DNA from: a virus
Taxonomy: Duplodnaviria > Caudoviricetes
DNA: 55,029 nt
Virus record (IMG/VR): IMGVR_UViG_3300020470_002235
Span: 1-55,029 of that record
Strand: one strand, 5' to 3'
Positions 1,547 to 41,703 of the stretch are shown piece after piece. Position 1 is the first letter of the stretch. Each line of letters starts with the position of its first letter. A program made the translations under genes and the position numbers. The notes beneath the pieces were generated by a model. That model was given only the letters and a program-made list of their open reading frames with translations. It had not been told where the DNA came from and did no database searches.

Positions 1547-2878
1547 TTATCCCCCCTTTGCACTAATATGAGTCGGCCATACATTCTTTGGACGTTTATA
1601 TTTAGAGTCCTTAGCGTCGTATGTGTGTATACTGGGTTGGGTTTGGTGTGAAACATAGGTTATTACGTTCTTTTCTGTATGGTTTCCTACGTTGTCTACA
1701 TGGTTGAAGTGTGTTCTTAGTTGTTCTAGGTGCGTGGCGTGTTCGGGTGTATTCTCATGTGCGAGGTAATTGATTGCACATATACCCGTTTTTGTGAGTC
1801 TATTCTTTAATCCCCTATAGAAGTTATCATTATATTTAAAGGTGGTTTTATCGTTTGCGAGGTCTAGGATTATTATATCGTATTGTTTGTCTCCCCTATG
1901 TATCCATTTAAATGCATCGTCATTGATTACGTTTATATCCTTAGGCATTTGGAAGTGGTCTTGGGCGATTTGCGTGAGTTCAGGAATGAGTTCTACCACG
2001 TCTATGTTCTTACACTTAGTGTTTTTATGTATCCATGAGGGTATAACTCCACCACCAAGTCCTAGCACAAGTACATTTTTTAGGTCTTCTTCGTCACAAT
2101 AACAGTCTTTGCAGGTGTGTTCCCATACCACATCACATAGTTGTTGGACATAAGGATAATATAGTTCTGTAGGGTTGTTGTTTAGAATGTGGGTCTGAAC
2201 CAACCATGTGTTATGTCCGAAATATAGGGACGTATGCGTATCGGTTTTCTTGACGACAATAGGCATACCCTCATACTCTGATTCATGCACGATAGTCTCT
2301 TGGTTGGGTCTTTTTATGTGTAGGAATCGTTTGTGGTCTCTCATGGGTTCTTCGTAGTGTGTGTATATGTCGAAGGCCATAGATATGCGTGGTTGTGTGT
2401 GTATATTGGTTTTGACTTCGTGTGGGTGTAACATTCCAGCGACGTGTAGTGTACCTCTAACGTTCTCTTGTGGTTCTCCGTCCCAATGCGTATAAGTTGG
2501 GTCTTTTCCGTCTAGGTATATGGAACACGCAAGAAGTTTATTTTGGTCTTCCGTATCGGCGTGGGTGTGTGTACCTATCGATTGGTTTTGGTGGAGTATG
2601 TTTCCCCAACATTGCACCCATAGTTCGTCATGAGGTGTGAACATAGGTAGAGTGAAGATTCTATCAGGGATATTCAGTGGTCTAATATCAGGGTGGGTTA
2701 ATAGATTATAGACCGAATATTGTTTGGTTGTTCCCTGATAGAACGTATTCTTATCTTGGTTGGGTATTGCGAGTATCTTGTGTTCGTCTCGTCTTAGTAT
2801 CCCTGCGATAAATTCACATTCCTCTTCAGTAAGGAAATCAGTAAATTCTGTATGAGAATGTGGGTCTAGATGAACCAT
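1547..2878 (-). CDS. 2OG-Fe(II) oxygenase fused to a spermidine-synthase-like SAM/dcSAM-dependent transferase
   Basis: N-half: HTH, HEV, RISMAFD; C-half: VLVLGLGGG, DVVEL, DDAF, YDIIILD. Confidence 0.75.
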   Translation of the reverse strand: MVHLDPHSHTEFTDFLTEEECEFIAGILRRDEHKILAIPNQDKNTFYQGTTKQYSVYNLLTHPDIRPLNIPDRIFTLPMFTPHDELWVQCWGNILHQNQSIGTHTHADTEDQNKLLACSIYLDGKDPTYTHWDGEPQENVRGTLHVAGMLHPHEVKTNIHTQPRISMAFDIYTHYEEPMRDHKRFLHIKRPNQETIVHESEYEGMPIVVKKTDTHTSLYFGHNTWLVQTHILNNNPTELYYPYVQQLCDVVWEHTCKDCYCDEEDLKNVLVLGLGGGVIPSWIHKNTKCKNIDVVELIPELTQIAQDHFQMPKDINVINDDAFKWIHRGDKQYDIIILDLANDKTTFKYNDNFYRGLKNRLTKTGICAINYLAHENTPEHATHLEQLRTHFNHVDNVGNHTEKNVITYVSHQTQPSIHTYDAKDSKYKRPKNVWPTHISAKGG

Positions 2879-5714: not shown

Positions 5715-6383
5715 TTATAGTTTAATTTGTGTCTTTGGGTGCGTGGGTGCATCTCCCAAAGTGTCATACTCTGTCATACTCTCTTCTAAATGAGGTGCAA
5801 ACCACATTGAGAGTACATATCTTTCCCCTGTAAGGACTGGTTCTACACCATGCCACCTTTCAGTTGAGTTATTAAAAGCAACCATTGACCCCGTAAAAGG
5901 TATTATCTTATGTCCATCTACGGTTAAGTTACCACCAGTGAAATCTTCATTTAGATTGAAGATAACAGTTCCTGTATCACCTTCATCTGAGTCGTCTTTA
6001 TGAAACGGACAAAATGATTCCATTGGGTATTTTAATATTTGCATATATGAAACCATCTCAAAGTCATCACCCCAAGGCACAAACTCATCAACCCATTCTA
6101 AAATCTGCATGAAATCAGGATTAGATGAAAGAATTGTATAAGATTCTCTTCCTTGCTCATTGGTGAACTTAACTCTGTCTTCGTCTTCTTCGTGTAAAGG
6201 TGCAAAATGACCACCATGTTCTTCGTTCATGGATTTGAGTTCAGTGAATGGTGCGACTTCATGCATTTCAATTATTGCATTACAAAGATTCTCAGGAAGA
6301 GCTGCGTGTCCGATTATTAAGATAGGATTGTTCATTACCAATTTCTCACTGGGTGTAAAAAGTTTACTTGGGTATATCTCCAA
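5715..6383 (-). CDS. 2OG-Fe(II) oxygenase, prolyl-4-hydroxylase-like (start probably about 6335)
   Basis: HKD, FTGG, HGVEPV, GERYVLSMW. Confidence 0.85.
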   Translation of the reverse strand: MEIYPSKLFTPSEKLVMNNPILIIGHAALPENLCNAIIEMHEVAPFTELKSMNEEHGGHFAPLHEEDEDRVKFTNEQGRESYTILSSNPDFMQILEWVDEFVPWGDDFEMVSYMQILKYPMESFCPFHKDDSDEGDTGTVIFNLNEDFTGGNLTVDGHKIIPFTGSMVAFNNSTERWHGVEPVLTGERYVLSMWFAPHLEESMTEYDTLGDAPTHPKTQIKL

Positions 6384-7078
6384 GTTTCACCTGTATATTT
6401 AGAGTAGTCATCTATCCATGCTCCGTGAATCCTATTGCCTGGAAATATGACACACCTGTTGAATTTTGCAGGGACTACTCTTTTCAATTCAAATCTATCT
6501 AACACTGGATACAATACGTTCAAGTGTTCGTCATTTGATAACCATGTTCCTTCATAAATTGCAGTTCCACCGTCCTCTTCTTTATCCATGTAGATAATCA
6601 TGTTGAGTGTGGATTCGTTATCAGGTGTATCGAGTTCTGAATCAGTGTGTGGATAATGTTGTATATTCTTATCAAATACACTTAGTGTTTGGAAACAGTT
6701 AAATTCATATATCCTAGACCAGTTATATTCTCCTTTGTGAAAGTATTTTTGACATAAACTTACCACTCTTCCCATTTCATTTTCATATATTCTTGTTGGG
6801 TGTGCTATTTTGTCTGTAATTCTACAGTCATTATAGTCAATACCATTCCTAGTGTTTCGTTCTGTAGTGTATTTCCACATAGGATAATCTCTATTCCTGA
6901 CCCACTCATAAAGTGTATCAGGGTCTTCATAGAAATTATCTATGGTCAACACTTCACCGTCAAACTCTGCATTGAAGGTTGAACTGAATTTAAACAGTTC
7001 GTCTAATACAAATGGTTTACCCATGATTCTCCTCAAGGAATTGATAAGACATATTATCACCTGTTGTGTTGTTATCAA
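6335..7078 (-). CDS. 2OG-Fe(II) oxygenase (DUF6445-like; start probably about 7024)
   Basis: IDNFYEDPD, PHTD, GGTAIY, KFNRCVIF, HGA, R-Y-T-Q. Confidence 0.8.
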   Translation of the reverse strand: MITTQQVIICLINSLRRIMGKPFVLDELFKFSSTFNAEFDGEVLTIDNFYEDPDTLYEWVRNRDYPMWKYTTERNTRNGIDYNDCRITDKIAHPTRIYENEMGRVVSLCQKYFHKGEYNWSRIYEFNCFQTLSVFDKNIQHYPHTDSELDTPDNESTLNMIIYMDKEEDGGTAIYEGTWLSNDEHLNVLYPVLDRFELKRVVPAKFNRCVIFPGNRIHGAWIDDYSKYTGETWRYTQVNFLHPVRNW

Positions 7079-10464: not shown

Positions 10465-10905
10465 TTAAATAAATTTATCTCTTCCAACCCAAAACATATT
10501 GTAGATTTTAGACTCCATTTTGTATGCTTCTTTCTCCCAAGGCTGAAGGGAATATGGTGTTTTTACATAATATTTTCTCTTGAATCTTTGCAATTTGGGT
10601 GATAATTCCCCTTTGATGAACTGTTTTGCGTGGATTAGTTCGTGTGCGAGGTTTAACATCATTTGGTCATGGGTAAATTTCTTACTATTTTCGTCAAATC
10701 TGTTGAGTTCTATGTCCACGTCTTTTTTAGTACCTGCACAAGTGGCATAATGGTACTCTTCCGATTCAGGTTTAATAGACACTATGTGTAACGAAAGGTC
10801 TATATTACGTCTTAATCTTGGGTGCAAGTGATATATCACGTCTTCAATGTAATTGTATATGTCTTTCTTTCTTGCAATCTGACCCGAAATGTCGATGTTT
10901 ATCAT
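10465..10905 (-). CDS. HExxH zinc metallopeptidase-like protein
   Basis: LAHELIHAKQ and PWEKEA. Confidence 0.75.
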   Translation of the reverse strand: MINIDISGQIARKKDIYNYIEDVIYHLHPRLRRNIDLSLHIVSIKPESEEYHYATCAGTKKDVDIELNRFDENSKKFTHDQMMLNLAHELIHAKQFIKGELSPKLQRFKRKYYVKTPYSLQPWEKEAYKMESKIYNMFWVGRDKFI

Positions 10906-11447: not shown

Positions 11448-11656
11448 AGTTTAACTGCGAGTAATATAAAGATTCCAAACATAATAATGTTTGCAAAAAA
11501 CATTAGACCTGCGAGTATAGTGTGATACCAAATCCACCTAGTCTTGTATGCGTTTTCTATTGTTAAATCATCAGGGTCAGGTGAATCGTCTATTTGTTTT
11601 TGTACTAAATCGTCTTCTTCTTTACTACCCCATAATATTTGATACCATTTCTTCAT
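11444..11656 (-). CDS. small protein with C-terminal TM (start revised to MKKWY)
   Basis: TAATG overlap with the glutaredoxin stop. Confidence 0.65.
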   Translation of the reverse strand: MKKWYQILWGSKEEDDLVQKQIDDSPDPDDLTIENAYKTRWIWYHTILAGLMFFANIIMFGIFILLAVKL

Positions 11657-11889
11657 TAGTAACCACCATCTCCCGAATGCCAAGTTTGAAATTCTTGGTA
11701 TCCACCAACGTATTCTTCGTCTGCAGTTATTTGAGGGAATGTTCTTGCGTTAGGAAATTTCTCAAAGAGTTCTTCTCTTGTGAAGTCAACGTCTAATTGG
11801 TAATATTCATAATCGTATCCTTCTCGTTCTGCAAGTGCTTTTGCTTTATCACAAAAAGGACATTGTGGTTTTCCATATATTTTTATCAT
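11656..11889 (-). CDS. nrdC: glutaredoxin
   Basis: CPFC, TFPQI, YVGGY; directly follows nrdB. Confidence 0.93.
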   Translation of the reverse strand: MIKIYGKPQCPFCDKAKALAEREGYDYEYYQLDVDFTREELFEKFPNARTFPQITADEEYVGGYQEFQTWHSGDGGY

Positions 11890-12983
11890 AATTTAAATCC
11901 TTTGAATGAGTCGTCTTTAACATCTTGTTTAATACCACCGATAACATACGACTCAATCTCTGTCTCTTGTGGTGCATTCTGTAATCCTCTACTGTTGAAC
12001 CAGTGTGTAGTCCAAGGCAATGGATTATTAGTAGAACTTCTGTCATATATAGGGTTTAGTCCTATTGCTCTCAATCTCTTGTTTGCAATGAACTCAACGT
12101 AGTATCCAAGTAGGTGTGTGGATAAACCAATCATTGAACCATATTTGAATAGAAACTCAGCCCAATCTTTTTCTTGTTTGACTGCATCTTCATACATCTC
12201 ATACACTTCTTTTTCTGAATCTTTCATGACCTTTAACATGACTTTATCTTTCTCATGATTCTGATAACACTTCAATATGTGTTGTGTAATTGCAAGGTGT
12301 TGTGCTTCGTCTCTTGCGATTAGTGATATGATTTTTGCACTCCCTTCCATAAGTTTTGCTTCTCCGAATGCGAATGAACACGCAAAAGAAACGAAGAAAC
12401 GTATCCCTTCTAAGATATTAACTGATACTAGTGCAAGGTAAAGTGCCTTATAAAGGTCGTAATCGTTAATTTTATGACCCATTAATTTACGTCTTCCTAT
12501 GTCAATGAAGTCATCATATTTTTTTGTAACCGATTCTGCACGAGCGATAATAGCTTTCTCTTCTAGTATAGTGTCAAACACCTCACTTGGGTCTGAATAA
12601 ACATTCTTTATAATGTGAGTGTAACTTCTTGAGTGGATTGTTTCCATAAAGTCCCATGTGATTATACATGATTCCAATTCAGGGATTGTTACGAATGGTA
12701 GAAATGCGATTGCAGGAGCACGTCCTTGAACACTATCCAGTAGTGTTTGGTATCTTAAATTAGAAGTGAAGATATGTTTTTGTGCTTCATTTAGTGTTTG
12801 ATAATCACTTCTATCTTTTTGTAAGGATACTTCTTCAGGTCTCCAAAAGAATCCCAACTGTCTCTGCGTGAGTTTATCAAATATGGGATACTTGAACTCG
12901 TCAAATCTTTGTGTGTTTAGTTCTTCTCCAAAGAATATCTTTTCTTTTGTGAAGTCAATTTTCTTTTTATTAAATACGGTCAT
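11886..12983 (-). CDS. nrdB: class Ia ribonucleotide reductase beta subunit
   Basis: FFWRPEE, LLDSVQGR, ETIHSRSY, LEGIRF, RDEAQH, APQETE. Confidence 0.97.
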   Translation of the reverse strand: MTVFNKKKIDFTKEKIFFGEELNTQRFDEFKYPIFDKLTQRQLGFFWRPEEVSLQKDRSDYQTLNEAQKHIFTSNLRYQTLLDSVQGRAPAIAFLPFVTIPELESCIITWDFMETIHSRSYTHIIKNVYSDPSEVFDTILEEKAIIARAESVTKKYDDFIDIGRRKLMGHKINDYDLYKALYLALVSVNILEGIRFFVSFACSFAFGEAKLMEGSAKIISLIARDEAQHLAITQHILKCYQNHEKDKVMLKVMKDSEKEVYEMYEDAVKQEKDWAEFLFKYGSMIGLSTHLLGYYVEFIANKRLRAIGLNPIYDRSSTNNPLPWTTHWFNSRGLQNAPQETEIESYVIGGIKQDVKDDSFKGFKL

Positions 12984-14749
12984 ATTTTTTCACCATGTCT
13001 TAAACCCCAATGTGATATAGGTGAATGATTTGAAAGTGAATGTTCACCATCAAATGATACTTTCCAACCAAGATAGTTTTTCACTTCATGATGTTTCAAA
13101 TCTTTAATATGACCTTCCCACTTTATTTCTTTATTCATTACTTTATTTCTGTATATACTGTTTAACTTAAGATTACTATGGTAATCTTCTAAAAACTTTT
13201 TAGAATATTTAGAATGTGATTCTAATTCTATATCTGCCCATTCTGTTATAGATTCTCCGTTTATATCTGATAACTCTACCATGTTGGGATATAACTTATC
13301 TATGAAATTGTTTTTAGTTGCATACTCTACTAAATCTAATATTTGGCCAACTTCTAACTCCTTATCTCCTTCTTGGTAAAACCTATCTCTAAGAAATCTT
13401 TTCTCATTCCAAAACTCTGATGTTAACCATTCATGTAAATATATATCACATTCAGGCAATTCAGTTTCAAGTAAATCTGCGTGAATATACTCTACATTAT
13501 CTCCTAGAATCCCTTTCATTCTATCGATAAGTTCACCTCTTCTTTCTAGTGCATATACTTTCTTTGCACCATATTTGACTGCAAGATAACATAATATACC
13601 TGAACCTGCACCTAAATCTATAACTACTTTGTCTTTAACATTCTTTGAAATCCAATCTTCATATGATTTGTTTCTCTGAGAATCAGTAAAACAATATGCA
13701 CTTTTAAAGAAGTTTAATGATTCATTACTTACTGATTCATCATGTTTTCTTTTCTCTCTTTCCGATAACTCAGCATTTTCAATGTGTGCATAATTATTAA
13801 CATACTCTTCAGGGTTAAACCAATCATGTTCTCCAGCACTCCACCCATTCCAAAATTCCATTGCCTCATGGAAGTATGATTCTTGTTCATCATTAGAGTG
13901 GTATCTACTCTTCCTACCGTCATATGCAAAAACAAGAGCTCCTCTGTTATTTGCACTTCCTTCATTTTCAAAACCGTAGTATTTTTTATTAAACTTATCA
14001 AAATGGTTTAGTGAACCATCGTGGTTAACAAAATGTAAAAACATATGGTAAGAGTAATCTCCTAAGAAGGTATCTCTCCAATGCACTGCATTTGGGCCTT
14101 GATAAAGTAACACATCACCAACCTCTAGTGTTATTGGAACTCCTTTTCTTTGGTGGTGTGGTATATTTTGACATTCTTCAAAGAACCTATCTTGACCGTC
14201 ACCTCTTGCAAGTCTAACATAGTTTTTATCTTTCTGAACCCAAATCTTCCAAGGCGTGTTGTCGTCTGATTTGTAATTAAGACAAATAGTTGCACTTACT
14301 TCGCATGAAGGTCTGTCACTATGTGCTTTTAGGTATGCACCTCTTTCATATTTTCTTGTATATGCATAAGTCTCTACTAAATTCATATCAAGAACGTTAG
14401 ATAAGTTATCCCTCATCCATCTATGCAATGCAACTGCAGGTGGGAAGGTATGACACCCTTGACTTTTTCTTAAGGATTCTTTAGGTGAATCATGAATAAT
14501 ATCATCTTCTATTTCAAAGAATGTGTCATTCCATTCTTGTTTATGTTCTATGGTCTTCCAAGTATCCATAGCCATATTAATGATTTCTTTAGGAATGAAG
14601 TTTCTTAAAATAACATAACCTTGAGTTTGAAACTCTCTTGTTATTTCATTTGTCCAACCGACTACTTTTTTTGTATCTTCAGGTTGCTCTTTCTGTTCTG
14701 TTTTGATTGTTTTATCTTCATATCGCACAGGCATCGCAGTCTTCCTCAC
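12980..14749 (-). CDS. 2OG-Fe(II) oxygenase fused to a PRMT-like class I SAM methyltransferase
   Basis: HSDRPSCE and HWRD in the N-half; VIDLGAGSGIL, GAKKVYALE, HEWLTSEFWNE and SHW in the C-half. Confidence 0.8.
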   Translation of the reverse strand: MRKTAMPVRYEDKTIKTEQKEQPEDTKKVVGWTNEITREFQTQGYVILRNFIPKEIINMAMDTWKTIEHKQEWNDTFFEIEDDIIHDSPKESLRKSQGCHTFPPAVALHRWMRDNLSNVLDMNLVETYAYTRKYERGAYLKAHSDRPSCEVSATICLNYKSDDNTPWKIWVQKDKNYVRLARGDGQDRFFEECQNIPHHQRKGVPITLEVGDVLLYQGPNAVHWRDTFLGDYSYHMFLHFVNHDGSLNHFDKFNKKYYGFENEGSANNRGALVFAYDGRKSRYHSNDEQESYFHEAMEFWNGWSAGEHDWFNPEEYVNNYAHIENAELSEREKRKHDESVSNESLNFFKSAYCFTDSQRNKSYEDWISKNVKDKVVIDLGAGSGILCYLAVKYGAKKVYALERRGELIDRMKGILGDNVEYIHADLLETELPECDIYLHEWLTSEFWNEKRFLRDRFYQEGDKELEVGQILDLVEYATKNNFIDKLYPNMVELSDINGESITEWADIELESHSKYSKKFLEDYHSNLKLNSIYRNKVMNKEIKWEGHIKDLKHHEVKNYLGWKVSFDGEHSLSNHSPISHWGLRHGEKI

Positions 14750-17030
14750 TATCGGGACTGTCTAACATAGGTGGAATGTAATCATTCATTGCAGAATTTT
14801 CATCTTTTACTACGTCTTCCGTTTTCCCGTCCATTGTATTTTGATAATATGATGTCTTCCAACCATACTTAAAGGTCTTCAACATATCACCTGCGAGTAT
14901 TGATACAGGAACTTCACCATTATCATAGTTTTCAGGATTGTAACTCCAATTCCCACTAATCGCTTGGTCAAAGAACTTCTGCATTACTGCAAGTGTCTTA
15001 ATGTATCCGTCATTGTCTTCCATATCCCATAGTAGTGTATAGAAGTTTTTAAGGATACTATATTGTGGAACCACTTGTTTAAGTGTTCCTTTCTTACTCT
15101 TCTTGACTGATAGGTAGTCTCTAGGTGGTTCGACACCATTTGTTGCATTAGAAACGACGCTAGAGGACTCTGACGGCATTTGTGCAGTCAAGGTTGAGTG
15201 TCTTAGACCATTCTCTTTAATCCTAGTTCTAAGACCTTCCCAATCACATTTTAAATCATTAGGGGTGATTTCATCAACGTCCTTCTTATAGTGGTCAATA
15301 GGTAGTTTACCTTTTGCATACTTTGTTTTATGAAAGTATTCACACGCACCTTTTTCTTCTGCAATATCAGCAGAGGCACATAGAAGTTCATATTGGAACT
15401 TTTCCGTAAGTTCATGAACTAGTCTATGTGCTTCAGGGTCTTCATACCCAACCTTGTTCTTCGCAAGGAAGTGTGCAAGACCAATATATCCAATACCTAG
15501 TGACCTTCGTGCTTTGGTCGAGCGTTTTGCAGCTTCTACAGGATACTCTTGGAAATCTATGAGTTCCTCAAGTCCTCTCACTGCGAGGTCACATAGGTTG
15601 GATAATTCTTCTATTTTAATTGTTCCCACATTGATTGCAGATAGAATACAAAGTGCAATCTCACCTTCTCCGTCTATATGTGTAAGTGGGTCTGTTGGTA
15701 GTGTAATCTCTTGACATAAGTTACTCATGTATACTTTATCATTGAATGAACTATGAGTGTTACAGTGGTCTATATTCATGATATAGATTCTTCCAGTCTC
15801 TGCACGTTCTTTTAACATATCTGTAAATAGTTCTCTCGCACTAACTTTTGTTTGTGGAATAGAATATGCACGTTCATACTTCTCATATAATTCGTCAAAT
15901 TCTTTTGTCCCGAATGCTTCATATAGTCCAGGCACATTGTGTGGACTGAATAGTGTAATGTCTTCGTTATTAATGAATCTCTGATAAAAGAGTTGTGATA
16001 TTTGAATACTGTAATCTAGTTTTCTTACTCTGTTGTCTTCTGTTCCTTTGTTATTTTTGAGGACAAGAATGTCTTCGATTTCTTGGTGCCAAATAGGGAA
16101 ATGAACTGTGGCACTTCCACCTCGTACTCCATTTTGGGTGCAACTTCTAACTGTTGCTTCAAACTTTTTAAGAAATGGTATGACCCCAGTATGTTGGACT
16201 TCTCCACCACGAATTTTGCTTCCAAGTCCTCTAATTCTTCCTGCGTTAATTCCAATTCCAGCTCTTTGTGCGACATATCGTCCGATTGCCATGTCACTCG
16301 TAAAGATTGAATCGAGGGAATCATCTGAATCAACGAGGACACATGAGGCGAACTGTCGTAAGGGTGTCCTAACTCCCGCCATAATAGGTGTTGGTATGTT
16401 AATTTTATAGGTGGATATTGCATCGTAGTATCTTTTGACATAATCTAGTCTCCTATCTTTGTCATACTTGTGGAATAGAGTCATTGCAATTAACATATAC
16501 ATGAATTGAGGTGTTTCAAACACTTCTCCATTACTTCTATCTTGGACGAGGTATTTGTCTACAATCTGTTGTAGTCCTGCGTAGGTGAATGTTATGTCTC
16601 TACTATGTTTAATATATCTGTCACATTGTGCAATCTCTTCTTCAGTATACATATCAAGAATTGCAGGGTCATAGACTCTCTTATCAATGTTTCTTTTGAT
16701 TATATCTAACAATGGTGGATATATTTCTGAATCTTTCCACTTAGTGTTAAACACTTGTTTTTGAATACCATACAATAATAGTCTGGCGGCGACAAATTGG
16801 TAATTGGGATTTTCTAGTGATATTAAATCTGATGCAGATTTTACTAGAATTTTTTGAATGTCTTTTGTTGTAATTCCATCATAGAACTGAAGACCACTAT
16901 TCATTTCTACTAAGGATTCTGATACCCCTGCAATCTTCTTACAGGCCTTATGAACCATTTTATGAATCTTATCCAAGTCAATATTTACTTTTGAACCGTC
17001 CGACTTAACTACTAACATTGGTGAGTTCAT
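14718..17030 (-). CDS. nrdA: class Ia ribonucleotide reductase alpha subunit
   Basis: N-terminal ATP cone, PTPIMAG, ASCVL, SNLCQEI, MPSESSS, KTSYY, C-terminal CDAC. Confidence 0.98.
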   Translation of the reverse strand: MNSPMLVVKSDGSKVNIDLDKIHKMVHKACKKIAGVSESLVEMNSGLQFYDGITTKDIQKILVKSASDLISLENPNYQFVAARLLLYGIQKQVFNTKWKDSEIYPPLLDIIKRNIDKRVYDPAILDMYTEEEIAQCDRYIKHSRDITFTYAGLQQIVDKYLVQDRSNGEVFETPQFMYMLIAMTLFHKYDKDRRLDYVKRYYDAISTYKINIPTPIMAGVRTPLRQFASCVLVDSDDSLDSIFTSDMAIGRYVAQRAGIGINAGRIRGLGSKIRGGEVQHTGVIPFLKKFEATVRSCTQNGVRGGSATVHFPIWHQEIEDILVLKNNKGTEDNRVRKLDYSIQISQLFYQRFINNEDITLFSPHNVPGLYEAFGTKEFDELYEKYERAYSIPQTKVSARELFTDMLKERAETGRIYIMNIDHCNTHSSFNDKVYMSNLCQEITLPTDPLTHIDGEGEIALCILSAINVGTIKIEELSNLCDLAVRGLEELIDFQEYPVEAAKRSTKARRSLGIGYIGLAHFLAKNKVGYEDPEAHRLVHELTEKFQYELLCASADIAEEKGACEYFHKTKYAKGKLPIDHYKKDVDEITPNDLKCDWEGLRTRIKENGLRHSTLTAQMPSESSSVVSNATNGVEPPRDYLSVKKSKKGTLKQVVPQYSILKNFYTLLWDMEDNDGYIKTLAVMQKFFDQAISGNWSYNPENYDNGEVPVSILAGDMLKTFKYGWKTSYYQNTMDGKTEDVVKDENSAMNDYIPPMLDSPDSEEDCDACAI

Positions 17031-18064
17031 ACTTTCTTATACTCCATAAATTTCGCTTTCGCTGAGAGTCCTGAAAAAGAACACTCGTTAATTATACTTA
17101 CTATTTGTTCTGATGATAATCCACTGGATACCATATCATTAATATCTTTCAAATCACTAACTCTTCTATCGTTCCAAATGCAAACTTTCCAACCTTCATT
17201 GATAACGGTATCAATCTTTTTCAAAATTTCAACGTTTCTTGGTTCGTTGTCATATACTAGAATTGCATTTTCTTTAATAGAATCATCTAGTTTTGTGAAG
17301 TCGCTCCCTGCAACAGAAATTGCATTGGGAAGGAAGAGACTATCTATCGGCCCTTCCGTCACATAGATAGTTTTTTTAATGTCCACTTTATGTAGGTTGT
17401 AAATAAGAGGTTCATCGTCATGAAATTTCATTGTCATGTATCGCAATGGACTGTCGTTCATTGCACGACCACTCAAACCAATCAATTCATTCTCCCTATT
17501 AAAAAATGGTATTATAATTCTTGGGTCTGTACCAAGAACTCTATCTTCATACTTCTTTGATAATATTGATAACTGTTGAGGAGCTGGACTATACCAAAGT
17601 TCTTTATGGTGAACTGAAGGAATATGTCTTTCTTCTAGATACTCTCTTGCAACTGAAACTTCACTACAAGGTTTCATAAGAAATTTCAGGTTTTCAACAG
17701 TCATAATATTACTAGTATTTAGAGTTTCGTCTTTCGCTTGGAACTTGAATTTACTGGAACTTGGCAACTTTTTTTTCTTAGGTTTAAGTCCTTTTTCGGT
17801 CAACCACTCTTTCATGTATTCTTTATGAATAACAGGAAAATGTTCTTTTAAAAAGTTGATTGTTGAGGTAGATTTACCACAATTATGACACTTATAGACA
17901 TAACTTTGTTCTATGACAAAGTGGTATCCTCGTGCTTTATGTTGATTTTTTTGGGAATCACCACAATAGGGACATCGGTGATTAAGGGTTGTATCCCCTT
18001 TCCATTTGGCTACGTCCAAGTGGGACACAACCATAGATAAGTATTTTTTCTCTAACCAAAGCAT
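17027..18064 (-). CDS. gp61: T4-like DNA primase
   Basis: CPYCGDS...CHNC zinc finger, TEGPIDS, YDNEPRN, KDINDM. Confidence 0.95.
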   Translation of the reverse strand: MLWLEKKYLSMVVSHLDVAKWKGDTTLNHRCPYCGDSQKNQHKARGYHFVIEQSYVYKCHNCGKSTSTINFLKEHFPVIHKEYMKEWLTEKGLKPKKKKLPSSSKFKFQAKDETLNTSNIMTVENLKFLMKPCSEVSVAREYLEERHIPSVHHKELWYSPAPQQLSILSKKYEDRVLGTDPRIIIPFFNRENELIGLSGRAMNDSPLRYMTMKFHDDEPLIYNLHKVDIKKTIYVTEGPIDSLFLPNAISVAGSDFTKLDDSIKENAILVYDNEPRNVEILKKIDTVINEGWKVCIWNDRRVSDLKDINDMVSSGLSSEQIVSIINECSFSGLSAKAKFMEYKKV

Positions 18065-38372: not shown

Positions 38373-38673
38373 TCTTCTCTCTCTCCGCTTGGTGTTCGAT
38401 GAGTTCAACCAATATATCACCCATCAGTGTATTTAATTCCTCAATATTTAGTAGTCCTTTTAGGTACTCTTCACTAGGTTCTACTCCATGAGGAACTCTT
38501 CTTATTGTTCTTTGAAAATTGAGATGAGGTGTTCCGTCTTCCATTTGTACTTTGCCGTACTGATATACTAAACCGTCCCATTCACCACCCTGTAATTCTA
38601 TACCTGCAGTTTTATCATCAGGATTCTCTACAACTCTGTAGACCCCTTCGTCAAATAATTTTCTAGTCGTCAT
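38341..38673 (-). CDS. hypothetical protein
   Basis: GLVYQYGKV and MGDILVELI. Confidence 0.7.
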   Translation of the reverse strand: MTTRKLFDEGVYRVVENPDDKTAGIELQGGEWDGLVYQYGKVQMEDGTPHLNFQRTIRRVPHGVEPSEEYLKGLLNIEELNTLMGDILVELIEHQAEREKNEQRDSKGTD

Positions 38674-39331
38674 TACAAAATGCGATATGGTTTTTACTAT
38701 ATCTTCCTAATCTCTTATACTGTTCATGTACATTACTGAATGAATGTCTCAATCCTTTAATGTAATGTTCATAATTTCTTTGAGTTACAAATGCGTTAAA
38801 GGCAATATAACCCTTGTTAATCTTATTTAGGTTTTCATAAAATTCTGTTGACCTAATCTCTTCAGGCATTCCTTTCGGCCCAGCTATATCAACAAAAATA
38901 TAATCATACTGCGTGGTGCAGGTTTCTACGAACTCAAATGCATCACCAATAACACAAGTAATTCTATCGTCATTAGGCATATGGAAATAGGTTTCTCCTA
39001 TATGTCTAAGGTCAAATATATCAACACTAGTGATATTCATTTGTGTATTTCTATGCAGGTAAGACGGGATAACTCCACCACCAGTTCCTAGAACTAATGC
39101 ACGTTGTTCAACTGTAGGAAGGAAAGGTAGTGTCTTGCGATACTGAAGAACTTCAACCATTTCTTTAGCATAAGTCTTTTGTAATTCATGAGGATATTTC
39201 TTCTTCAATGAAGTTTGATTCAACACACCATCAAACTCTAAAATTATACACTGTTGAGTTTCTCTAACTGCAATCTCAACACCATTTACTATTTCTTTAT
39301 AAATTATTTCACTCATAAATTCTAACTCCAA
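38663..39331 (-). CDS. spermidine-synthase-like SAM/dcSAM-dependent transferase
   Basis: ALVLGTGGG, SVDI, GDAF, YDYIFVD; paralog of the C-half of 1547-2878. Confidence 0.75.
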   Translation of the reverse strand: MELEFMSEIIYKEIVNGVEIAVRETQQCIILEFDGVLNQTSLKKKYPHELQKTYAKEMVEVLQYRKTLPFLPTVEQRALVLGTGGGVIPSYLHRNTQMNITSVDIFDLRHIGETYFHMPNDDRITCVIGDAFEFVETCTTQYDYIFVDIAGPKGMPEEIRSTEFYENLNKINKGYIAFNAFVTQRNYEHYIKGLRHSFSNVHEQYKRLGRYSKNHIAFCNDD

Positions 39332-40355
39332 ATGAACAATCGTTCATAATTGATTTATGGATACCTAGAGACGCTTTTCTTGTTCCCATAGCTCCACCTG
39401 CAAATGTATCTACAACTTCCCTTTCTTGTAAATCTCTCATTGTTACATAGTGCATATACGCACCAATTCTTTTTCTAACCTCTTCAGGTACTTCAACTTC
39501 TTCTTCAAATACCATATGGTCAATAGACTTGTTTACTAATTGATACCCAATTTTCTCATTTAGTAAAAGGTACACAATCAATCCTACAGGTACATCACCA
39601 TATTCAAACAAATAATATTCAACTGAAGGGTCATTCCAATATTCATATTTGGTAATTGCATCTGACATTCCTTTAGATAACCATTTAGTCTTTTCAACGT
39701 CTCTCTTCCAAGTTAAGAATGCATTGTTTATCTTTTCAACTACACCATCAGGTTGGTTTAATTTTCTATAAGAGACTTCAGGATTTTTTAGTAATCTATT
39801 AACACCCTTTTTGGTTCTCCACCTGTTATTCATTTTTTCCATGTTAGTATCAACATGAGAATAATAATTATAAGTTTCAAATTCAGTATGCAATTCTAAT
39901 CCTTTCTTTTCAATCCATAATGATTCTTGTTCATTACCTAAGAATTTTTTACATACATTCTCTCTCAATGCATCGAATACTAATTCTTCATTTAGTAATG
40001 AACCACTTGCACTGATTGGTAATCCTTCAAGTCTTTTATAAATGTGTTGGAACATTTGAACGTGTTTCAGTACTATCACGACCAAGTCTTCCCCAACACT
40101 TACTGTCGCAACTTTTCTTTGCCATTCATTTTTAATCTTATGATATTCGTGAACATATTCTGAAGGAAGTAATCCTTCATAACCATATCTCATTCTTCTT
40201 TGATACTGATAAAAATCTATAAACTTTTTACTGGAAGGTTCCTTGAGAGATAAACACATATCATTAAAGAATAATGAAGGGTCTACTGTTTTTAATGCCT
40301 CTATATCGATGCAGGGAATAGCTTCGAAAGGGTTCAACTCATCCAAAAAACTCAT
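39309..40355 (-). CDS. tandem-GNAT protein resembling DUF2156 / aminoacyl-tRNA-dependent transferases
   Basis: LPI, YNYY, RWRTKKGVNRL, GDVPVGLIV..LLNE....LVNKS and GAMG...SLGIHK line up by eye with the DUF2156 pattern. Confidence 0.55.
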   Translation of the reverse strand: MSFLDELNPFEAIPCIDIEALKTVDPSLFFNDMCLSLKEPSSKKFIDFYQYQRRMRYGYEGLLPSEYVHEYHKIKNEWQRKVATVSVGEDLVVIVLKHVQMFQHIYKRLEGLPISASGSLLNEELVFDALRENVCKKFLGNEQESLWIEKKGLELHTEFETYNYYSHVDTNMEKMNNRWRTKKGVNRLLKNPEVSYRKLNQPDGVVEKINNAFLTWKRDVEKTKWLSKGMSDAITKYEYWNDPSVEYYLFEYGDVPVGLIVYLLLNEKIGYQLVNKSIDHMVFEEEVEVPEEVRKRIGAYMHYVTMRDLQEREVVDTFAGGAMGTRKASLGIHKSIMNDCSFGVRIYE

Positions 40356-41703
40356 CTAGTGTACTCACTCTTGCATCTTTAAAAAAATCTCGAGCTACAC
40401 CTTTTGAAAAACACCAAATATTTTCAATGTAATATTTCTTCATGAACTCGTCCATTGCTTCTTTGTCAAAATTTCCGTCTTCATCTTTGAATACAGATTT
40501 ACCTTGAGGTCTCTGCATGATTCTCATTCCAATCTGACCGTCAAAAAATTCTTCTCCAATATGTCTGATTACTTCGTCTCCTGACCTGTATCTAACACCA
40601 TTGATTTTTGGGTCTAGAATGTTTATGTATAACACTCCACCATTTGCAAGTACATCAAAAGACGCTTGTGCAACTGGTAAATAGAACTCGTCTCTCCACG
40701 CATTATACTCATTAAACTTTGACCATGATTGGTCTTCTTCATGTTCTCCACCCTCATTATATCTCTCTGTTGAAAAATATGGTGGTGAAGTGAATGCACA
40801 ATCGATTGGTGGAAGGTTATTATAATTTAAATCTTCTGCACCACATCTATAAATCTCAACTTCCTTTGAACCAATACAAGCGAAGTAATCTTCTTGTTCA
40901 ACTAATTCAGGTTCTTTACCTGTAAGAATCTTTTCATATGTAATACATTGTTTTTTGTATCTTTCAAATGTCGCAGGGTTTGGGTCTGTTCCTATATAAC
41001 GTTTTGTGTAATTCCCTGCATAAAAACCACATAGTCTGTCACCCCAACCACAAGAAGTATCAAGTACTGTTTCACTCCTAGTGTTGTCATAGATAGATTT
41101 TGCAACAAGTGGTTTGAACTGCGTTGCAATGTATGTTCCCAATCTGAATGCAGAAATGTAAGATTTTTCATCCAACTTTCCACCCATGAGTTCTTCCTGT
41201 CCTTCAACTTGTACTTTTTGTACACCATTGATTCCTCTCCAAATAGGCCCTAAACATCTCCAAATTTCTTTAGAGGTTCCTTCTTCCCAAACTTTTACTG
41301 GTGGTTGGAAACCATAACTTCCACACGCAAGTCTTAAGTCTTGGTGAAAGAAGTTTGATGCATCACTATGAGTAGATGCACAATCAATTAAACCCATACC
41401 CCACTGGTCAAAATCAAAAGTATAATCGTCATACTTTTCCATGACCTCTTGTTCTAGGTTATCTGTAGGTGTGATACATTTACTAGTATCATAATCTCTG
41501 AGTGCAAGAAACATTTCACGCATTCTTTCGAATGAAATTTTCTTAAAAGGGAATGGTGGTCTGTTTTCTGCAATGAAATCTGCGAGTGCTAAACGAAATT
41601 CTTCCTTACCATATTCTTTGGTAATTGCATCAAAAAGGTTACCGTCTAATATAGGTAACCCTTCTGAATTTACATTGTCGGATAGAATTTGTTTTAGAGA
41701 CAC
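40339..41703 (-). CDS. amino (N4-C/N6-A) DNA methyltransferase-like protein
   Basis: VLDTSCGWGDRL SAM motif, GTDPN, FTSPPYF catalytic motif. Confidence 0.85.
   Translation of the reverse strand: MSLKQILSDNVNSEGLPILDGNLFDAITKEYGKEEFRLALADFIAENRPPFPFKKISFERMREMFLALRDYDTSKCITPTDNLEQEVMEKYDDYTFDFDQWGMGLIDCASTHSDASNFFHQDLRLACGSYGFQPPVKVWEEGTSKEIWRCLGPIWRGINGVQKVQVEGQEELMGGKLDEKSYISAFRLGTYIATQFKPLVAKSIYDNTRSETVLDTSCGWGDRLCGFYAGNYTKRYIGTDPNPATFERYKKQCITYEKILTGKEPELVEQEDYFACIGSKEVEIYRCGAEDLNYNNLPPIDCAFTSPPYFSTERYNEGGEHEEDQSWSKFNEYNAWRDEFYLPVAQASFDVLANGGVLYINILDPKINGVRYRSGDEVIRHIGEEFFDGQIGMRIMQRPQGKSVFKDEDGNFDKEAMDEFMKKYYIENIWCFSKGVARDFFKDARVSTLDEFFG

Follow-up and report, generated by a model that had tools for sequence, protein, structure and literature searches.

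A predicted 2-oxoglutarate oxygenase and a compact PRMT-family methyltransferase joined in one reading frame between nrdA and nrdB of a marine T4-like phage

The sequence analyzed here, the 55,029 nucleotides of the viral record IMGVR_UViG_3300020470_002235 (hereafter the window), comes from a marine T4-like phage, of which it represents a 55-kb fragment. The slot between its ribonucleotide reductase genes nrdA and nrdB holds an uninterrupted minus-strand open reading frame (ORF) in the ORF list (12980..14749, 589 aa from a GTG codon). Our results favor, with moderate confidence, the view that this frame encodes two enzymes in one polypeptide, a 2-oxoglutarate (2OG)/Fe(II) oxygenase and a compact methyltransferase of the protein arginine methyltransferase (PRMT) family, fused from genes with two different ancestral positions. 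The oxygenase, with a conserved C-terminal extension, occupies residues 6-334 (the N-half; 13748..14734, minus strand) and the methyltransferase domain residues 335-589 (the C-half; 255 aa, P0122; 12983..13747, minus strand). Residue numbers throughout are those of the 589-aa frame with the GTG start (P0001).

The C-half is a true PRMT-family homologue by both sequence and structure. Searched as a single sequence against the PDB with phmmer, its best 50 of 96 matches were all arginine methyltransferases, headed by PRMT3 (expectation value, E = 1.3e-8), and the first protein from outside the family appeared at E = 5.7e-4. A profile built from the C-half and 33 stand-alone relatives (alignment A2; 34 sequences, 25-83% identity) reached PRMT3 at 7e-26, with named arginine methyltransferases making up 59 of the 60 PDB matches listed, and aligned PRMT1 over positions 13-236 of 243, across the double-E loop, the proline hinge and the THW loop. 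The AlphaFold2 (AF2) model built on A2 had a predicted local distance difference test (pLDDT) score of 88 and a predicted template-modeling score (pTM) of 0.87. Compared with the PDB by Foldseek, it returned PRMTs in all rows listed, the best being PRMT3 (1.6e-10), at template-modeling (TM) scores of 0.5-0.6 on the query. By sequence and structure taken together the best matches are the eukaryotic type I enzymes PRMT1, PRMT3, PRMT8, PRMT6 and CARM1. An initial annotation of the window had proposed the PRMT assignment and had asked whether the best structural match might instead be PrmA or an RNA methyltransferase; that comparison was run, and the best Foldseek matches were PRMT3, PRMT6 and PRMT1, which places the C-half in the PRMT family and not with PrmA or the RNA methyltransferases.

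The resemblance extends to individual residues. In PRMT1, the residues that define the active site bind S-adenosylmethionine (SAM) and the guanidinium group. Aligned with PRMTs, the C-half carries, all on the minus strand, the N-terminal helix motif D356-x-x-R359-x-x-x-Y363 (13661..13684), the putative SAM-binding loop V-V-I-D-L-G-A-G-S-G-I-L of motif I (residues 375-386; 13592..13627; aligned to PRMT3 and PRMT1), which conforms to V/I-x-D-x-G-x-G-x-G of class I Rossmann domains, the post-I acidic residue E402 (13544..13546), the double-E loop from E440 to E449 (13403..13432; aligned to that of PRMT3 and PRMT1) and the THW-type loop S579-H580-W581 (13007..13015; aligned to T-H-W of PRMT1). E440, E449, E402, W581, P488, G380 and G382 are invariant in all 34 sequences of A2, down to 25% identity, and D356, R359, Y363, H439 and H580 are conserved in at least 90% of them. 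Among 149 representatives taken from an exhaustive profile search, D356 is kept in 145, R359 in 136 (the other 13 have Lys), Y363 in 125, E440 in 142, E449 in 144, W581 in 135 and H580 in 93; position 402 holds Glu in 126 and Asp in 22, and the first position of the THW loop Thr in 61 and Ser in 30. Judged from these alignments, the most conserved residues of the family are those that would define a PRMT active site. Helix, motif I, post-I Glu, two Glu nine residues apart, Pro hinge, beta structure and T/S-H-W follow one another in the same order as in the type I PRMTs. The motifs that the initial annotation had listed are thus all present in the order it gave, and far beyond chance, as the PRMT3 match and the two Glu conserved in 34 of 34 sequences indicate.

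Pfam gave the C-half short, threshold-level matches near motif I, to RrnaAD (24.7 bits) and to PrmA (22 bits), and two other assignments have to be weighed against that to the PRMT family. According to the first, the C-half is a PrmA-like methyltransferase that modifies a lysine or the N-terminal amine of a ribosomal protein. The Pfam PrmA match stands at its cut-off (22 bits), 32 of the 34 family members are matched, and TIGR00406 (prmA) is the best NCBIfam match of the C-half. However, the match spans 30-33 residues around motif I (372-401 in Pfam), the TIGR00406 score of 25-26.5 bits lies far below the cut-off of 183, and no PrmA structure occurs among the best 60 profile matches or the Foldseek matches listed. 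Because nine of ten longer relatives that carry PRMT_C match PrmA too, the match reflects a shared SAM-binding region and not membership, and we consider a PrmA-like enzyme quite improbable. According to the second, the C-half is a KsgA/Erm-type rRNA methyltransferase or acts on another nucleic acid, as RrnaAD just above its threshold (cut-off 24 bits; 65 residues, 372-436) and NCBIfam Erm at E = 1.3e-4 might suggest. Erm nevertheless scores 21-23 bits against a cut-off of 212, and KsgA-type PDB chains lie at E = 0.004-0.01, against 1e-8 for PRMTs, and are absent from the best 60 profile matches. The residues invariant across the family, moreover, are those of the PRMT guanidinium site, and we see next to no likelihood of a nucleic-acid enzyme.

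Unlike the type I PRMTs, the C-half is encoded by a phage, is fused to an oxygenase, lacks a PRMT_C match, carries a 20-residue insert after the double-E loop that is specific to the family in A2, and is only some 250 aa long. The initial annotation had called it minimal, and with 250 aa and an end just after the THW-type loop the domain deserves the word. Stand-alone members have 248-256 aa, whereas solved PRMT catalytic cores have roughly 310 aa or more; the window protein stops 8 residues after S-H-W, and the aligned PRMT1 chain runs 57 residues further. The conserved P488 hinge is followed by predicted beta strands, which can be aligned to PRMT1 as far as the THW loop, and a helix is predicted at domain residues 180-189, where the PRMT1 dimerization arm aligns.

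In the usual view, arginine methylation by PRMTs is a hallmark of regulation in eukaryotes. The initial annotation described PRMTs as mainly eukaryotic, which understates their range: in genome and metagenome proteins the A2 profile, searched exhaustively, found 12,506 cluster representatives at E <= 0.001, 50 of them at E <= 1e-30, many being compact viral proteins or fusions to tetratricopeptide repeats (TPR). On these numbers, the family grades into a large, mostly unannotated population of prokaryotic and viral PRMT-like proteins. The nearest Atlas clusters are 'hypothetical proteins' of 250-317 aa that are 92-100% viral, plus two dominated by Bacteroidota, and the Atlas gave PF23169 HalD as a sub-threshold lead (0.89). 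In BFVD, one viral model is close (D6PIP9, 72% identity), and a 313-aa phage protein has a PRMT-like match. In their sources, relatives are named 'hypothetical protein' or 'SAM-dependent methyltransferase'. Among 50,697 GenBank phage records no homologue of the C-half was found, two records matching 36 motif-I residues only. In bacteria and archaea, searched with one genome per species, 72 loci gave partial matches (<=42% identity, none past residue 180 of 255), so that similarity is confined to the Rossmann half, and no relative of the N-half lies within 5 kb of them. The TPR-PRMT fusions are reached by the same profile (~1e-25 to 1e-22) and share with the C-half the PrmA-type Pfam match; they differ in having a full-size barrel, a PRMT_C match (9 of the 10 longer, more distant relatives scanned), N-terminal TPR repeats (5 of the 10) and no oxygenase.

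The N-half is predicted from its fold to be a 2OG/Fe(II) oxygenase with a candidate H-x-D...H triad. Its AF2 model (pLDDT 91.5) is a double-stranded beta-helix, and the best Foldseek matches in the PDB were EvdO1, PHD2, Pseudomonas prolyl 4-hydroxylase, PhyH, HygX, OkaE and 2OG halogenases, with E values from 3e-9 to 1e-7 and TM scores of 0.42-0.44 for the query and at most 0.69 for the target; all rows listed were 2OG oxygenases or related halogenases except 8fni, a chain of a trypanosomal RNA-editing complex. The fold thus bears out the dioxygenase of the initial annotation. H143-S-D145 (14315..14323, minus strand) is the candidate H-x-D of the iron-binding triad and H223 (14081..14083, minus strand) its candidate distal His; neither varies among the relatives aligned (13 of 13 and 40 of 40), and H143 and H223 lie within predicted strands. 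An Asp in the triad argues for a hydroxylase-type and against a halogenase-type enzyme. PHD2, prolyl 4-hydroxylase, PhyH and EvdO1 share the double-stranded beta-helix and H-x-D...H with the N-half, but PHD2-type oxygenases lack its conserved C-terminal extension of about 80 residues. The N-half has no Pfam family (residues 1-350, none at E <= 1), and a profile of 40 N-half sequences found no sequence match in the PDB at E <= 10.

A different name is already in circulation for relatives of the N-half. Residues 39-250 match phrog_2954, labeled 'ferrochelatase', at 4.6e-37. In GenBank, 145 phage records match the N-half at 25-28% identity, mostly from Synechococcus and Prochlorococcus phages and five from Pelagibacter phages, and many of them carry the same label. 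The cyanophage genes among them are shorter and lie elsewhere in their genomes. A table in Sullivan et al. 2010 (PMC3037559) contains a row 'Hyp. with ferrochelatase domain', so the label is at least that old. Neither Pfam (E <= 1) nor NCBIfam gave a ferrochelatase family, and the predicted fold is that of a beta-helix oxygenase; the annotation of phrog_2954 and of the GenBank/RefSeq cyanophage records therefore appears to be wrong.

The fusion recurs. Nine database clusters of 580-599 aa, with 98-99% query coverage and 68-100% identity, represent the fused form; one of them has 10 members, a single one of which is found on 7 contigs, the longest of 138 kb. In all six loci inspected (L003, L212-L215 and L225, of which L003 and L215 are the same contig from two collections) the fused ORF is uninterrupted and the order is nrdA-fusion-nrdB. 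By contrast with these full-length forms, about 110 of the 120 cluster matches listed are 323-411 aa long and cover the N-half only. Full-length oxygenase relatives at 30-55% identity stand alone directly after nrdA in 16 of 16 viral loci, with nrdB next in 15 (the sixteenth locus ends within the oxygenase gene); more distant relatives (64 loci, 27-39% identity) are located elsewhere. The initial annotation took the whole gene to have been inserted between nrdA and nrdB, and here it has to be corrected: in this lineage of Kyanoviridae-type phages the oxygenase is the resident of the slot and the methyltransferase half alone the newcomer.

The stand-alone oxygenases also bear on the relation between the two halves, which might be opposed: the oxygenase would then be a methyl-arginine demethylase, an eraser in the style of JmjC/JMJD6 fused to the writer of the mark, giving a self-limiting or substrate-editing enzyme. 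A demethylase was among the options raised by the initial annotation. It is general knowledge, set out also in PMC4224472, that 2OG oxygenases remove N-methyl groups by way of hydroxylation. However, the oxygenase is widespread alone in the nrd slot, and in all 16 loci there is no methyltransferase within 7 kb, so that its ancestral function would have needed no writer nearby. In addition, the best matches of the N-half are prolyl hydroxylase, PhyH and tailoring enzymes, with no JmjC demethylase in the rows listed. We therefore place very little weight on a writer joined to its own eraser.

The methyltransferase has a position of its own. As a stand-alone gene it has terminase neighbors in 42 of 42 viral loci (L004-L045), both the small (TerS) and the large (TerL) terminase subunit gene being present in 39 and the other three being contig ends. 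This holds for a group at 63-86% identity and for one at 36% identity, and the arrangement is found in a further 25 metagenome loci. In L032, for example, the order is head-tail adaptor, neck protein, tail sheath stabilizer, TerS, methyltransferase gene, TerL, sheath and tube. In a quick maximum-likelihood tree of 41 rows, with support from the Shimodaira-Hasegawa-like approximate likelihood-ratio test (SH-aLRT) only, seven fused rows form one group (support 62) inside a 25-row clade (99). The other 18 rows of that clade are terminase-slot genes, and the clade is nested in larger terminase-slot clades (99 and 88). The tree includes 5 of the 9 fused clusters and omits the other 4, exact duplicates and three truncated ORFs (L037-L039). 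A separate clade (92) comprises PRMT-like genes of about 300 aa that stand alone between nrdA and nrdB, overlapping each; the lineage carrying them is more distant, with about 50% identity in nrdA (L046, L047 at 5920-6840, L052 and L055, with ten metagenome loci: L247, L248, L250, L262-L266, L271 and L275). These keep both Glu of the double-E loop and have N-N-W in place of T-H-W. Because this separate clade occupies the same slot, the nrd slot was reached twice independently.

A plausible course of events is that in one sublineage a methyltransferase copy from the terminase slot landed directly downstream of the oxygenase gene, and that the loss of a stop and a start codon would then have fused the two. 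Base composition is consistent with a later arrival of the C-half. As the initial annotation had noticed, it is the more AT-rich part of the gene: its GC content is 29.5%, while the N-half has 35.3% and the window as a whole 36.2%. No other 765-nt stretch in the 55 kb goes lower, and 0.5% of such stretches have 30% or less. Stand-alone methyltransferase genes, too, have a lower GC content than their flanks, by 1-4 points. When the window is compared with L003, the ratio of non-synonymous to synonymous substitution rates (dN/dS) is 0.29 in the N-half and 0.31 in the C-half, and consequently both halves appear to be under purifying selection.

The gene is tightly embedded in its surroundings. 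The ORF is real and uninterrupted and, as the initial annotation stated, lies between nrdA and nrdB and overlaps both. The true start is most likely the ATG at 14734-14732, which gives 584 aa, because a Shine-Dalgarno-like GAGGA precedes it (14742..14746, read 14746-14742 on the minus strand, 7 nt upstream of the ATG and within the 3' end of nrdA) and a 584-aa database cluster representative is 100% identical. So defined, the fused gene runs over 12980..14734 on the minus strand with its stop codon at 12980-12982. It shares 17 nt with nrdA (14718..17030, minus strand; Pfam 1e-134), and its stop overlaps nrdB (11886..12983, minus strand; Pfam 7e-54) by 4 nt, ATGA. A primase-like gene (17027-18064), nrdA, the fused gene, nrdB and, last, a glutaredoxin-like ORF (11656-11889) make up one tight minus-strand run. 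Among cultured phages, those nearest at the nrd locus are HTVC008M and Mosig of Pelagibacter (Kyanoviridae), which show 68-70% nucleotide identity to the window across nrdA and nrdB; their nrdA-nrdB slot is filled by other small genes instead. Between 11500 and 18300 the T4-type late promoter motif has 0 copies (6 in the entire window, 5.25 being expected), and neither sigma-70-like sites (21, against 26 expected) nor terminators (4 against 3) are enriched. With no late promoter motif and no excess of sites or terminators, the simplest reading is that the fused gene is co-expressed with the nrd genes; the scan gives no basis for claiming a separate transcription unit.

We hypothesize the following mode of action. 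The C-half would bind SAM through motif I and the post-I Glu, while E440 and E449 would clamp a guanidinium group in the manner of PRMTs, so that a guanidino nitrogen is methylated. The acceptor would most likely be a peptidyl arginine in a protein of the phage or the host. The attached oxygenase may oxidize, most likely hydroxylate, the same substrate or a neighboring residue, and the protein would be co-produced with ribonucleotide reductase from the overlapping reading frames. That the halves cooperate on one substrate is suggested by the fusion itself and by the linkage of PRMT sister groups with peptide dioxygenases in operons, as described in PMC3417536. A complex prediction with the N-half and the C-half as separate chains gave no answer (score 0.00, mark 0.32) and speaks neither for nor against binding between them.

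These proposals should be interpreted with some caution, as several observations weigh against them. In the N-half, no Arg or Lys stands about 10 residues after H223 to bind the C5 carboxylate of 2OG; the candidates for this role are the invariant R132, R136 and R225. In the C-half, the beta-barrel half falls well short of its length in solved PRMTs, Pfam PRMT_C (PF22528) matches one of the 34 family members and not the window protein, and whole-length Foldseek superpositions have root-mean-square deviations of 12-14 Å over about 300 columns; the Rossmann part alone superposes well (3.6-3.9 Å over 166-172 columns). Two of the nine fused clusters, P0005 and P0010, have Asp for the first Glu of the double-E loop. 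As to joint action, the stand-alone oxygenase and the stand-alone methyltransferase are never adjacent (0 of 16 and 0 of 42 loci), and since the separate genes are never side by side, joint action finds no support outside the fusion. Ten related viral records (11-47% complete) each cover one of the two regions, nrd or terminase, and in no case both. As to the substrate, none of the 105 window ORFs of at least 60 aa is RGG-rich, the maximum being two RGG-type triplets, in NrdA; this lends no support to the RG-containing basic proteins of the window, which the initial annotation had put forward as substrates. Finally, the stand-alone methyltransferase is an accessory gene, present in 8 of 77 closely related TerS-TerL junctions (taken from the 80 top matches among at least 594), and a degenerate 182-aa remnant lies between TerS and TerL in L305 (3383-3931) and L306, with motif I altered, the first Glu replaced (H-N for H-E) and no barrel.

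In the rest of the 77 junctions the two terminase genes are 45 nt or less apart (66) or separated by other inserts (3). The junction is thus a general accessory-gene slot. At the same junction of related phages, L364, L365 (1386 nt) and L367 (2014 nt) carry unrelated inserts.

Some of these findings could be read to mean that the C-half is no more than inert cargo: an accessory gene in decay, hitch-hiking into junctions and inactive when fused. The patchy presence and the 182-aa remnant would fit such decay, as would the change from Glu to Asp in two of the nine fused clusters and a GC content that is the lowest of the window. Against this stand the dN/dS of 0.31 across the C-half, the signature residues, which are all intact in the window protein and in the other seven fused clusters, and the retention of a full-length ORF in every fused locus examined. 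A dead passenger thus seems highly improbable to us, and we continue to favor two working enzymes in one chain.

The truncated barrel bears on the substrate in particular, as the barrel is part of the substrate-binding surface of PRMTs. Together with the want of an RGG-rich protein in the window, it leaves some room for another reading, in which the C-half methylates the guanidino or amino group of a small molecule or of a short ribosomal or non-ribosomal peptide, and the two halves form an oxygenase-methylase tailoring pair that does not act on folded protein. In keeping with this, the best structural matches of the N-half include the tailoring oxygenases EvdO1, HygX and OkaE and the CurA/WelO5 halogenases beside protein hydroxylases, and bacterial sister groups of the PRMTs are described in PMC3417536 as sitting in peptide-antibiotic-like operons with peptide dioxygenases. 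The neighbors, however, are nrdA and nrdB or TerS and TerL, with no non-ribosomal peptide synthetase (NRPS), precursor peptide or biosynthetic gene adjoining, and the nearest solved sequence relatives are all protein-modifying PRMTs. We consider a tailoring pair unlikely on balance and prefer peptidyl arginine as the acceptor.

The two ancestral slots differ in their setting, the terminase slot belonging to the late operon and the nrd slot to a module for replication and nucleotide metabolism. It would follow that the substrate is available at all stages of infection, as host proteins or a small molecule would be, or else that the gene merely hops between junctions. Putting these elements together, we tentatively propose a more specific scenario, which we regard as possible but rather doubtful in its full form. 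A mobile minimal PRMT, the first of a bacterial virus, would hop between the TerS-TerL and nrdA-nrdB junctions, having reached the latter twice, and would here have been welded to a protein hydroxylase, yielding a single early-expressed enzyme that marks a host or phage protein with a hydroxyl group and methyl-arginine. Candidate targets would be the translation apparatus, ribonucleotide reductase and the packaging machinery.

Among described systems, a parallel is offered by the bacterial PRMT-like 'peptide methylases' of Aravind and co-workers (PMC3417536). They are likewise linked to peptide dioxygenases, through operons where the present case has a covalent fusion; the operons described there are secondary-metabolite operons with NRPS and amine oxidases, in contrast to the nrdA/nrdB or terminase neighbors found here. 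No report of a phage-encoded PRMT was found in the literature searched, subscription journals lying outside its scope; PMC3417536 was the one text in it that bore on phage or prokaryotic PRMTs. What is new is a minimal virus-borne PRMT clade, a 2OG oxygenase-PRMT architecture and a route between two junctions of conserved genes.

Several other genes of the window may be recorded. A second fusion (1547-2878, minus strand, 443 aa) combines a putative oxygenase half with an H-T-H-A-D motif and a spermidine-synthase-like transferase half; BLASTP found no similarity between its N-half and that of the nrd-slot fusion (E = 0.3). A 222-aa stand-alone relative of the transferase half is encoded at 38663-39331, as one of three overlapping genes at 38663-41703 (minus strand), the others encoding proteins of 348 aa and of 454 aa, the 454-aa protein with an S-P-P-Y methyltransferase motif. 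Furthermore, a 146-aa ORF at 10465-10905 (minus strand) has an H-E-x-x-H motif and is a possible zinc metallopeptidase; in L048 and L049 its homologue (47% identity) is found 2.3 kb away from a distant PRMT-like gene.

In conclusion, the presented data correct a 'ferrochelatase' annotation that has been propagated through a widespread oxygenase family of marine phages, and they point to the TerS-TerL and nrdA-nrdB junctions as exchange points for accessory enzymes. If the proposed activity is true, no smaller PRMT scaffold than the C-half would be known, which would make it useful in studies of structure and mechanism, and it would connect, in a way open to testing, with the proposed descent of eukaryotic PRMTs from prokaryotic peptide methylases working with dioxygenases. 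Arginine methylation would then be counted among the tools of marine phage-host conflict and, should the more specific scenario also be true, it would be part of the phage takeover in the most abundant bacteria of the ocean.

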